A stretch of DNA of 11,651 nucleotides from a virus (lineage: Duplodnaviria > Heunggongvirae > Uroviricota > Caudoviricetes). Under the pieces are notes generated by a model that was given only the letters and a program-made list of their open reading frames with translations, was not told where the DNA came from and ran no database searches. A program made the translations under genes and the position numbers. Position 1 is the first letter of the stretch. Every line of letters starts with the position of its first letter. The stretch lies in the IMG/VR virus record IMGVR_UViG_2657245006_000001; one strand, given 5' to 3'. Below are positions 1,466 to 8,069 of the stretch, one piece after another.

Positions 1466-1495
1466 AGGAAAAAACAAAACCCGCCGAAGCGGGTT
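1466..1495 (-). terminator. Intrinsic terminator of the hok transcript
   Basis: On the minus strand the transcript reads AACCCGC-TTCG-GCGGGTT followed by TTGTTTTTT: 7-bp GC-rich stem, 4-nt loop and U-run (plus 1478-1495 stem-loop, 1467-1477 A-run), about 70 nt downstream of the hok stop. Confidence 0.7.
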
Positions 1496-1563
1496 ACGTG
1501 CGGGTGCGTTGAGGATGCCTGACACATCAGAGGTGGCGAGGGATTTCTCCCCCGCCAGGTCTC

Positions 1564-1719
1564 TTACTCCTCAGGTTCGTAAGCTGTGAAGACAGCGACC
1601 TCCGTCTGGCCGGTTCGGATTCGTACCTCGCAGAGGTCTTTCCTCGTTACCAGTGCCGTCACTATGACGGTTAAACAGATGACGATCAGGGCGATTAACA
1701 TCGCCTTTTGCTGCTTCAT
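1564..1719 (-). CDS. hok: Hok/Gef-family type I toxin, 51 aa
   Basis: Hand translation gives MKQQKAMLIALIVICLTVIVTALVTRKDLCEVRIRTGQTEVAVFTAYEPEE: one N-terminal transmembrane helix and the conserved Hok periplasmic tail with Cys. AAGGAG lies 9 nt upstream of the ATG at 1719. Not in the ORF track because it is under 60 aa. Recalled as near-identical to HokD (RelF). Confidence 0.85.
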   Translation of the reverse strand: MKQQKAMLIALIVICLTVIVTALVTRKDLCEVRIRTGQTEVAVFTAYEPEE

Positions 1720-1775
1720 AGCCTGCTTCTCCTTGACCTTTCGGTCCGTAAGAGGCTAATCTCTATGTGTCGCAT
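1716..1775 (-). CDS. Mok-like leader ORF (19 aa) whose stop overlaps the hok start codon
   Basis: ATG at 1775..1773 opens MRHIEISLLRTERSRRSRL. Its TGA (1718..1716) overlaps the hok ATG (1719..1717). Resembles the mok/hok coupling arrangement but is much shorter than plasmid R1 mok; Shine-Dalgarno is weak. Confidence 0.3.
   Translation of the reverse strand: MRHIEISLLRTERSRRSRL
1733..1762 (+). promoter_or_regulatory. Candidate Sok-type antisense promoter facing into the hok leader
   Basis: TTGACC (1733-1738), 18-nt spacer, TAATCT (1757-1762) on the plus strand. A transcript starting near 1769 would be antisense to the leader-ORF initiation region (start 1775). A hairpin GCGTC-ttgcag-GACGC (1801-1816) flanked by direct TAATGTTAA repeats lies downstream. 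Confidence 0.3.
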
Positions 1776-1977
1776 AGATATGGCCTCAGATTAATGTTAA
1801 GCGTCTTGCAGGACGCGTAATGTTAACTGGGGCTTTTCTCTATCTGCCTTTTGGTGTTCATGCCTGAGACAGATAGCCTCAAGCACCCGCAGTCATTCTA
1901 CTTAACTAAGATTTCCCCGCAAACCGTTTTTGTCCGGCACAGTAAATATCCAACTAAACCAATGGCGTTCGCTGTAT

Positions 1978-2157
1978 TTACCGCCAGTATTCAATGCACA
2001 TGACCGCCATGAACACCCCTAAAAAAAGGGCATTTATATATCCAAATATTAATATCAAAACATCAACTTTTTCCATATACCTTGCTGTGAAGATGATGGG
2101 CATACATGATACGAACAACCAGAACGCAACAAACAAAAACTGCAATGCGTTTTTCAT
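1978..2157 (-). CDS. Small membrane protein, 59 aa, two predicted transmembrane helices, in an AT-rich island
   Basis: ORF-track ORF 1978..2196 trimmed to the ATG at 2157..2155, which has AGGAGG 4 nt upstream. Product MKNALQFLFVAFWLFVSCMPIIFTARYMEKVDVLILIFGYINALFLGVFMAVMCIEYWR has two hydrophobic stretches. Sampled lines here hand-count to about 32-37% GC against roughly 50% for flanking genes. Confidence 0.55.
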   Translation of the reverse strand: MKNALQFLFVAFWLFVSCMPIIFTARYMEKVDVLILIFGYINALFLGVFMAVMCIEYWR

Positions 2158-2327
2158 TATTCCTCCTACAATCAATGTGCAATTACATTTAAACACACCT
2201 CAATTTGGCCGGACATATAAATATCTAAACCAGAAAAAATCACTTACATAGCGTTACAAACTCTTTAGTCTAAATATTCATCGTAAAACATTCCCCATAC
2301 TTATCAGCCCGTTCTGCGCCAGGTAGC

Positions 2328-5848: not shown

Positions 5849-6487
5849 ATGAGCAAGCAAACTATATCTGAACGCATAACCCAACGTATGCATGCGCTAA
5901 ACCTGAAAGGCAAAGACCTTGTCAATGGCACTGGCGCATCAAAAGGCTCCGTAAGTCAATGGATGAACGGTGGAGGAGCGCCGTCCTCGCGTTACATAAG
6001 TTCACTGGCAAAAATATTGAAAGTAAACGAAAATTGGCTTCTTAATGGAGGAGAGTTAAATACAGGTGATTCGCTTGATCTATCTTTACCGCCGATAAAA
6101 ACGGTTCCGCTACTATCACTTCAGCAGGCAGCAAGCTGGAGTGATTATATGAAAAATTCCTCAATAACCTCTTGTGTGCAGCTTGTCGGAGAAATCCCGG
6201 TCAATACCTTTGCAGTTGTTCTAGAGAGTGACAGTATGTCAACATCTGGTGGGGGAGTTTCCATCCCAAATGGTTCAACAGTTTTTGTTGATCCCGATCG
6301 AACCGTACAACCAGGAAATATTGTCCTTGCCTTACCCAAAGGGACCACAACACCTGTCATTCGTAAACTGGAGATAGAAGGGCCGGATATTCTTTTAGTC
6401 CCCACGAATCCTCGCTACCCTTCAATTATGCTGGATGATCTATCTTGCATATTGGGCGTATGCTTTAAAATTCAACAAGATATTTAA
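5849..6487 (+). CDS. cI: CI-like prophage repressor, 212 aa: N-terminal XRE-type HTH plus C-terminal S24 (LexA-like) autopeptidase domain
   Basis: ATG at 5849, TAA at 6485-6487. N-terminal HTH (ISERITQRMHALNLKGKDLVNGTGASKGSVSQWMNG). C-terminal domain has the Ser nucleophile context ESDSM and a downstream Lys (VIRKLEIEG), as in LexA and lambda CI. Confidence 0.85.
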   Translation: MSKQTISERITQRMHALNLKGKDLVNGTGASKGSVSQWMNGGGAPSSRYISSLAKILKVNENWLLNGGELNTGDSLDLSLPPIKTVPLLSLQQAASWSDYMKNSSITSCVQLVGEIPVNTFAVVLESDSMSTSGGGVSIPNGSTVFVDPDRTVQPGNIVLALPKGTTTPVIRKLEIEGPDILLVPTNPRYPSIMLDDLSCILGVCFKIQQDI

Positions 6488-7313: not shown

Positions 7314-7668
7314 TAGCTAACCAACGAAGCTAAGGTTGGTAATTAAGGAGTTCTCCACGGGTGAGGTGGAGTGCGTGCGCCGGACACGGGTGAGCATCCG
7401 GCACTGACAGTTTACTGAAAGGATATTTCCCTGAAAAGTCAGACCATAACGCGAAAGCGCACGGCGAGGTAGCTGGTTCATAGATAGCCTGTCGTTAAAT
7501 TTTCGTCGACCGTGCGCTTCCGGTTGTGGCAACCCGCGAAATGGTGCGGCGGTAAGTATGGCGGGGTTATTTCTTCCCCGTTGAGGACACCGGGTTGTCA
7601 GGTTGACCATACGCTTAAGTGACAACCCCGCTGCAACGCCCTCTGTTATCAATTTTCTGGTGACGTTT
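7314..7668 (+). other. GC-rich structured non-coding block with no ORF (candidate structured RNA, regulatory element or gene remnant)
   Basis: All three plus frames are full of stops; the only minus ORF (7317..7652) starts at a non-ATG codon and is Arg-rich. Perfect stems: 7455-7464 with 7510-7519 (10 bp), 7592-7600 with 7620-7628 (9 bp), 7379-7384 with 7397-7402, 7320-7325 with 7335-7340. CACGGGTGAG repeated at 7356 and 7385. A sampled line hand-counts to about 60% GC. Confidence 0.3.
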
Positions 7669-7711
7669 GGCGGTATCAGTTTTACTCCGTGACTGCTCTG
7701 CCGCCCTTTTT
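7669..7711 (+). terminator. Candidate intrinsic terminator at the end of the structured block
   Basis: GGCGG (7669-7673) pairs with CCGCC (7701-7705); an imperfect inner stem extends the hairpin; T-run at 7707-7711 follows. A U-tract exists only for the plus strand. Confidence 0.4.
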
Positions 7712-7880
7712 AAAGTGAATTTTGTGATGTGGTGAATGCGGCTGAGCGCACGCGGAACAGTTAAAACCAAAAACAGTGTTATGGGTGGATTCTCTGTATC
7801 CGGCGTTAATTGTTAACTGGTTAACGTCACCTGGAGGCACCAGGCACTGCATCACAAAATTCATTGTTGAGGACGCGATA

Positions 7881-8069
7881 ATGAAAACGTTATTACCAAA
7901 CGTTAATACGTCTGAAGGTTGTTTTGAAATTGGTGTCACTATCAGTAACCCAGTATTTACTGAAGATGCCATTAACAAGAGAAAACAAGAACGGGAGCTA
8001 TTAAATAAAATATGCATTGTTTCAATGCTGGCTCGTTTACGTCTGATGCCAAAAGGATGTGCACAATGA
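7881..8069 (+). CDS. Small hypothetical protein, 62 aa
   Basis: ATG at 7881 with GAGGA 7 nt upstream; its stop overlaps the next ATG (ATGA at 8066-8069). Product MKTLLPNVNTSEGCFEIGVTISNPVFTEDAINKRKQERELLNKICIVSMLARLRLMPKGCAQ. Confidence 0.5.
   Translation: MKTLLPNVNTSEGCFEIGVTISNPVFTEDAINKRKQERELLNKICIVSMLARLRLMPKGCAQ

Follow-up and report, generated by a model that had tools for sequence, protein, structure and literature searches.

A hok/sok cassette of the hokW/sokW lineage, probably intact and with a 19-codon mok-like leader, in a lambda-like prophage

The hok/sok family was described in the 1980s and 1990s, and the question raised by the locus analyzed here is whether a hok-like gene in viral DNA belongs to a complete unit of this family or to a differently built variant of it. 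A first reading of the 11,651-nt stretch (hereafter the window, at its full length), made from the letters only, placed at positions 1466–1830 a toxin gene without relBE, preceded by a leader open reading frame (ORF) shorter than canonical mok, and suggested both an autonomous type I module and, possibly, a different mode of regulation. We consider it likely, with a probability of about 0.8, that the locus is an intact type I toxin–antitoxin cassette of the hok/sok kind, of the hokW/sokW (that is, hokD-type) lineage, to which the mechanism known from plasmid R1 and prophage Sp5 may be transferred. It is an already known, very common unit, real but ordinary. Direct observations on the window cassette concern its sequence, homology, predicted folds, and distribution.

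The cassette extends from about 1925 to 1468 on the minus strand. The sequence-only reading thus pointed to the right locus but underestimated its extent, as the range 1466–1830 leaves out the 5' third of the toxin mRNA, which would start at 1888, and the candidate −10 element of that mRNA (1900–1895). Several features support the autonomy of the module: a promoter-like −10 element of its own, a fold-back between the tac and fbi boxes, the leader ORF, an antisense unit resembling Sok, and a terminator. The assembly is far beyond chance expectation: the leader matches the Rfam model RF01794 with 106.7 bits (E-value 5.8e-24), and folding of the full-length mRNA gives a z-score of −9.6.

The toxin gene, taken from the ORF list, occupies positions 1564–1719 (minus strand) and encodes a 51-aa protein identical to K-12 HokD. 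It matches Pfam PF01848 (HOK_GEF) with 82.9 bits (cutoff 22; E-value 1.2e-23) and PHROG 251, “MokW-like host killing,” with 114.7 bits. Positions 1440–1960 of the window are 100% identical in E. coli FDAARGOS_536; the protein encoded there, WP_000813254.1, is also the accession of HokD in a K-12-derived strain, hence, the earlier assignment of the toxin to the HokD (RelF) type stands. The hok Shine-Dalgarno sequence AAGGAG (1729–1734, minus strand), read from the sequence, is located inside the leader ORF and is invariant in the alignment of the window, 933W, R1-type, and hokC loci. As a separate observation, the Tyr47 codon of hok is UAC followed by G (UACG, 1581–1578, minus strand), which we take to be the sequence context recognized by TadA. 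The hokD mRNA is edited at about 6%, and a conserved Cys at alignment position 46 is coded by RNA editing in HokC, HokD, and HokE (PMC12214031). The HokD coding sequence has been reported to be toxic; a summary of earlier work in the same preprint lists hokA, hokB, and hokC as tested, with no post-segregational killing (bioRxiv 10.1101/2025.08.07.668861).

The candidate −10 element of the hok mRNA, TAGAAT (1895–1900, minus strand), was read from the sequence, 6 nt ahead of the start of the Rfam match, and is backed by homology: it aligns with TAGAAT in 933W, TATAAT in K-12 hokC, and TATGAT in the R1-type locus, each located 6–7 nt before a GG start. The −35 element is weak (TTTGCG/TTGCGG near 1923–1917, minus strand). 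A generic sigma-70 promoter scan called neither the hok nor the Sok promoter; both were assigned by their position relative to homologous promoters that have been annotated or mutated in experiments, not by a consensus score. The full-length hok mRNA would then span positions 1888 to 1470 of the minus strand, about 417 nt, its 5' end being set at position 1 of the Rfam model and its 3' end at the terminator. The match to RF01794 (named “sok,” with the model built on the sense strand of the hok leader) covers positions 1717–1888 (minus strand) and the model from 1 to 157 of 157, well above the gathering score of 59. The same model matches the R1-type, hokC, hokW, and Rac loci; it does not match K-12 hokD.

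The predicted RNA from 1888 to 1472 has a minimum free energy of −175.2 kcal/mol (z-score −9.63 relative to shuffled sequences). Here, the first 12 nt, the tac box GGGUGCUUGAGG (1877–1888, minus strand; the mRNA 5' end and the start of the RF01794 match), are paired with the fbi box CCUCAA(C)GCACCC (1502–1514, minus strand), complementary to tac with one bulged C and located just upstream of the terminator. If the last 44 nt are removed, the 5' end is predicted to fold as a local hairpin instead, which is what the published switch between a full-length inactive form and a truncated active form predicts (PMC9841398). An R1-type locus used as a positive control folded in the same way, with GGCGCUU pairing with AAGCGCC; both its tac and its fbi differ from those of the window, with complementarity retained. 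Among 91 unique close relatives there was no tac/fbi covariation to count: fbi varies only at the bulged C (sometimes T), and the invariance of tac in this set is uninformative, tac being fixed by the selection filter. The transcript would end at an intrinsic terminator (1468–1495, minus strand) with a 7-bp stem containing five GC pairs, followed by TTGTTTTTTC; the stem at 1495–1478 with its T-run is the sole minus-strand terminator found by the scanner. The description of this element as a clean terminator was accurate.

On the opposite strand, the Sok promoter is placed by positional homology at 1733–1762 (plus strand), with the −35 element TTGACC (1733–1738), an 18-nt spacer, and the −10 element TAATCT (1757–1762). 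In alignments, the promoters of sokW and sokC, both annotated genes, fall at this place, as does the site in the R1-type locus that we take to be the R1 Sok promoter, the record itself having no sok annotation. The generic scan missed this promoter because only three of six positions match in the −10 element. The predicted Sok RNA covers 1769–1837 (plus strand), about 69 nt, and overlaps the leader ATG and Shine-Dalgarno sequence; its ends were transferred by alignment. The annotated 5' ends of sokW (AF125520) and sokC (NC_000913) map to the same G, position 1769 of the window, and the 3' end of sokW maps to 1837. The plus-strand promoter-like element of the sequence-only reading hence aligns with the promoters of annotated sok genes, and the antisense RNA it had predicted at 1769–1830 agrees with the transferred ends exactly on the 5' side and nearly so on the 3' side. 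The predicted fold (−29.8 kcal/mol, z-score −5.7) consists of a single-stranded 5' tail, a long hairpin, and a U-rich tail. By alignment and predicted fold, the unit thus resembles a cis-antisense Sok gene, with a promoter of its own, a single-stranded 5' end, a terminator hairpin, and overlap with the leader start. In Sp5, cells were no longer protected against HokW once the −10 element homologous to TAATCT had been changed, and providing sokW in trans brought part of the protection back (PMC8621323).

At the tip of the Sok hairpin, positions 1802–1819, the lineage of the window has a 16–18-nt palindromic insertion relative to the Rfam consensus, hokC, and R1, which lengthens the hairpin of both Sok and its target. 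A sub-lineage (L023, L027, and related loci) has a leader 22 nt shorter, with tac 147 nt from the ATG, and differs in the hairpin-tip region; judged by spacing and leader sequences, it appears to be without the insertion. It reaches the in-frame 57-nt spacing described below via a different indel.

The cassette is part of a lambda-like, Qin/Rac-related prophage, in which it is flanked by the replication genes and, on the other side, the region of the Q antiterminator. The order on the minus strand is a cro-like gene, a cII-like gene, a replication initiator, a Ren-like gene, small ORFs, hok, and genes for a 92-aa protein and a DUF968 protein; RusA and Q come after the DUF968 gene in the identical genome. 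A cI-like repressor gene (5849–6487, plus strand) is divergent from cro. Upstream of the window hok there are no relB or relE ORFs; prophage genes are found there instead, which confirms the absence of relBE noted earlier, and, with a full leader present, the locus is not a relBE–hokD (relBEF) operon. Elsewhere in the window, positions 7655–7706 (plus strand) contain the DicF antisense sRNA (Rfam RF00039, 76.7 bits, full length), and a DicB-like ORF is located just downstream, within 7776–8069 (plus strand); together they mark the prophage as Qin/dicB-type. The hok promoter region is preceded, at a distance of about 55 nt, by a small, strongly hydrophobic ORF (1978–2196, minus strand; 59–72 aa) that matched nothing in Pfam or PHROG and is unannotated in the identical RefSeq genome.

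This setting bears on how far the cassette is autonomous. The hok gene has the orientation of the early rightward operon, with cro, cII, and the replication genes on one side and the DUF968, RusA, and Q genes on the other, and a scan found no terminator-like site between 1900 and 2300; therefore, read-through at induction could add to or override the cassette's own control. Such read-through would fit Sp5, where mitomycin C raises HokW and lowers sokW in a RecA-dependent manner and speeds phage release, and where deletion of the locus halved phage release (PMC8621323). Taken further, Hok would in vivo be made mainly from read-through of the early operon after induction, the hok promoter with its weak −35 element would be of minor importance, and Sok would be a gate that is overrun, the whole aiding lysis as proposed for Sp5. 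We regard this stronger version as rather unlikely: in the window, 933W, hokC, and R1-type loci alike, a conserved −10 element precedes a conserved GG start by 6–7 nt, the cassette boundary lies just upstream of the hok promoter in many contexts, and read-through RNAs would carry a 5' extension altering the tac end. The two routes, from the early operon and from the cassette's own promoter, are not mutually exclusive.

The remaining question is that of the leader. Read from the sequence, the mok-like ORF (1716–1775, minus strand) has 19 codons, MRHIEISLLRTERSRRSRL, followed by TGA. Its ATG is at 1775–1773, 8 nt downstream of the Shine-Dalgarno sequence GAGG (1784–1787, minus strand; likewise read from the sequence), an arrangement common to R1-type and hokC loci, and its TGA (1718–1716) overlaps the hok ATG (1719–1717) as ATGA. 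The 19-codon leader with a stop on the hok start, as first described, is therefore directly readable on the minus strand, and it has the attributes of a mok-type leader: a Shine-Dalgarno sequence of its own, a start within the Sok target, 19 codons crossing the hok Shine-Dalgarno sequence (1734–1729), and a stop at 1718–1716. The claim that it is shorter than canonical mok holds relative to annotated mok genes, but not for the part preceding hok, which has 19 codons in R1, mokC, and mokW as well. In R1, the first 19 codons of mok are upstream of hok, and translation past the hok start is dispensable (PMC9841398). The proposal that regulation may differ because of the short leader thus lacks support, and we rejected the leader as a new regulatory variant, given that R1, mokC, and mokW share the 19 pre-hok codons and only those are needed in R1. 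A point against an active cassette is that R1 loses its toxicity when stop codons are introduced ahead of the hok start (PMC9841398); the leader of the window stops exactly on that start.

Aligned with the Rac-type locus, which has a 58-nt allele, the window leader shows a 2-nt deletion just after its ATG. We infer that it is a minimal mok produced by this deletion rather than a different regulatory design, because the 19 codons known to matter in R1 are kept and the ATGA overlap has the geometry of termination–reinitiation. The spacing between the leader ATG and the hok ATG was surveyed in 125 hokD/hokW-type instances, namely, 120 IMG/VR loci, four reference loci, and the window. The spacing is 57 nt in about 101 instances, where the leader is in frame with hok and “Mok,” as in the mokW annotation, amounts to a Hok extended to 70 aa; 14 instances are of the 56-nt window type, in which a leader of 19 codons stops on the hok ATG; and four have 58 nt, with an overlapping frame of 68 aa that, by alignment, seems to be the frame of R1. 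Six instances are without leader homology, four of them relBE-type (K-12-like) and two unclassified. About 770 E. coli records contain the 79-nt leader segment of the window at 100% identity, and no annotated feature covers it there. The hok ORF is intact in each of the 13 complete IMG/VR copies of the 56-nt allele. The combination of 56 nt, 19 codons, and a stop on the hok ATG also occurs, among species-representative genomes, at the hokC-type loci of E. ruysiae and E. whittamii, where it is of independent origin.

The most variable 10-nt bin inside the cassette is 1770–1779. It contains the start of the leader together with the 5' end and the recognition site of Sok, and the indels behind the 56-, 57-, and 58-nt spacings fall in it. 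In each of two genomes with three co-resident copies, all copies differ at these positions; many haplotypes circulate, and the differences are weak evidence compatible with diversification of Sok specificity. One may tentatively suppose, although we would not expect it to hold, that the leader frame varies freely among the three spacings as a by-product of Sok-target diversification, which would let several prophage copies share one genome without cross-silencing, the window allele being a natural “minimal mok”; if so, the allele would show that only ribosome transit to the hok start matters. In any case, nature offers in the 56-nt allele a counterpart to the mutagenesis of R1, in which mok translation proved necessary only up to the hok start.

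The least probable alternative is that the 2-nt deletion truncates mok and uncouples hok, so that the toxin is never made and the allele rides as a silent relic on successful prophages; this we consider quite improbable, since, while the leader ORF is indeed frameshifted relative to the 57- and 58-nt alleles, toxicity in R1 is lost when mok ends prematurely ahead of the hok start (PMC9841398), several chromosomal hok loci have been reported inactive (bioRxiv 10.1101/2025.08.07.668861; PMC12214031), and the allele is in the minority (14/125 sampled loci), its stop follows the hok Shine-Dalgarno sequence and overlaps the hok ATG in the classic termination–reinitiation geometry, translation up to the hok start is sufficient in R1 (PMC9841398), all other cassette elements are intact, hok is kept in 13/13 complete copies with the allele unchanged in about 770 E. 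coli records, and the same arrangement arose independently in the hokC lineage of two other species.

For an intact cassette, the mechanism transferred from plasmid R1 hok/sok and Sp5 hokW/sokW would run as follows. A weak promoter would drive a stable transcript about 417 nt long (minus strand, from 1888 to about 1470), in which the 5' tac box pairs with the 3' fbi box, the locked RNA being neither translated nor bound by Sok. Slow 3' trimming would remove fbi, so that the 5' end refolds and the leader Shine-Dalgarno sequence is exposed; ribosomes would cross the 19-codon leader and the hok Shine-Dalgarno sequence, stop at the UGA on the hok AUG, and restart on hok, and the resulting 51-aa peptide would damage the inner membrane. 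The short, unstable Sok RNA (plus strand, about 1769–1837), made from a stronger promoter, would pair across the leader start and block translation of the leader and hence of hok, with the duplex marked for RNase III. Transcription, RNA processing, toxicity, and Sok control of the window allele would thus presumably follow those of the characterized relatives.

The cassette is widespread. Of 5426 complete E. coli genomes, 3814 contain at least 80% of the 521-nt query; genomes having any show a median of two places and as many as 10, and the search located 12,607 places altogether. The cassette also occurs in 102 phage records, among them 933W, VT2-Sakai, and many Stx phages. When the window is compared with 124 other loci, homology breaks off at about 1890–1936 on one side and about 1470–1500 on the other; since it ends at both edges in varied flanks, the cassette is a discrete one. 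A nucleotide search of plasmids (the “distant” setting) yielded hokD-type copies only, many of them on records near 95 kb in length, and did not reach R1 hok; the R1-type locus was retrieved by a protein search. The hokD-type plasmid copies, 89–91% identical, are on many plasmids of about 72–370 kb (most of 93–125 kb) from E. coli, Salmonella, and Klebsiella; 476 of the 605 matching plasmid records are typed as non-mobilizable, and the plasmids carrying these cassettes may be phage-plasmids. Some host labels call for caution. The record PP818812.1, “Actinobacillus phage vB_Apl-pPE4,” has a 95% identical hok cassette, odd for a Pasteurellaceae host; the phage may well derive from E. coli, or its host may have been assigned wrongly. 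Short contigs labeled Acinetobacter idrijaensis and Xanthomonas pisi, with hok 96–100% identical, look like contamination.

Annotation follows the cassette incompletely. RefSeq (PGAP) gives only the hokD coding sequence in these genomes, with neither a sok non-coding RNA nor a leader ORF, although the Rfam score is well above the gathering threshold; as a consequence, the antitoxin is invisible to annotation-based surveys. In one locus (L127), the annotation instead has a “hypothetical protein” on the other strand, which begins about 40 nt beyond the hok stop codon and crosses the 3' UTR and the terminator. The discovery value of the window locus is low: for its closest relative, annotation (in phage 933W) dates from 1999 and validation from 2021, and most E. 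coli genomes carry the cassette.

The sequence-only reading had named plasmid R1 and the chromosomal hok loci as the systems to compare; the element order proves to be the same in the R1-type locus, and hokC and hokW also match RF01794. The closest system is hokW/mokW/sokW of 933W/Sp5 (AF125520), with about 92% nucleotide identity to the window cassette; mokW, hokW, and sokW are annotated in 933W. The tac box, the fbi box, and the hok Shine-Dalgarno sequence are identical, the Sok start base and the lambdoid prophage setting are the same, the extended Sok hairpin is near-identical, with one base differing, and the RF01794 scores are nearly equal (113.5 bits for 933W vs. 106.7 for the window). 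The differences are in the leader, whose ATG in 933W precedes the hok ATG by 57 nt, in frame, so that MokW has been annotated as an N-terminally extended Hok of 70 aa, whereas that of the window is at 56 nt and its ORF stops on the hok ATG; in the sequence around the leader ATG, that is, the Sok 5' end; at the C-terminus of the toxin, VFVDYESEK in HokW and VFTAYEPEE in the window; and downstream, where homology to 933W ends before the terminator hairpin. For Sp5, the toxicity of HokW, the antitoxin activity of sokW, and dependence on the sokW promoter, RNase III, and Hfq have been shown (Takada et al. 2021, PMC8621323).

Plasmid R1 hok/mok/sok (parB) shares with the window the −10 element, the GG start with tac, GAGG 8 nt before the leader ATG, the 19 pre-hok codons, the hok Shine-Dalgarno sequence AAGGAG, fbi just before the terminator, and the place of the Sok promoter, and the R1-type locus matches RF01794 with 87.2 bits. 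R1 hok is, however, too diverged from the window for a nucleotide search to find it; HokW, which differs from the window Hok only near the C-terminus, is 44% identical to R1 Hok (PMC8621323). Moreover, R1 mok continues out of frame to 70 aa (PMC9841398), the R1 Sok hairpin is without the 16–18-nt extension seen in the lineage of the window, and R1 hok/sok is a plasmid-stabilization locus, whereas that of the window is a prophage gene. K-12 hokC (gef)/mokC/sokC has the best RF01794 score of the set (118.3 bits) and, like the window, a 19-codon leader, with the annotated SokC start on the same base as predicted here; it differs in the reading frame that mokC shares with hokC (57 nt), in its chromosomal location, and in having IS186 immediately downstream.

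The last comparison, with hokD (relF) of the K-12 prophage Qin, reverses the initial view. The Hok protein is identical, the coding sequence, the 3' UTR including fbi, and the terminator are near-identical, and the downstream region is syntenic, with the gene for the 92-aa hypothetical protein followed by that for the DUF968 protein YdfU, although K-12 has rem between. Homology, however, starts only at position 1733 of the window, 14 nt before the hok ATG, and RF01794 does not match: relB–relE occupy the place of the promoter, the tac box, the leader ORF, the Sok target, and the Sok gene. K-12 hokD has been described as inactivated by rearrangement, and K-12 hok loci other than hokB have lost canonical components via IS insertion or rearrangement (PMC12214031). 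The difference from Qin relBE–hokD noted in the sequence-only reading is thus real, but the window is not the unusual member of the pair: the textbook K-12 relBE–hokD is the derived, rearranged exception, and the intact hokD-type locus is common.
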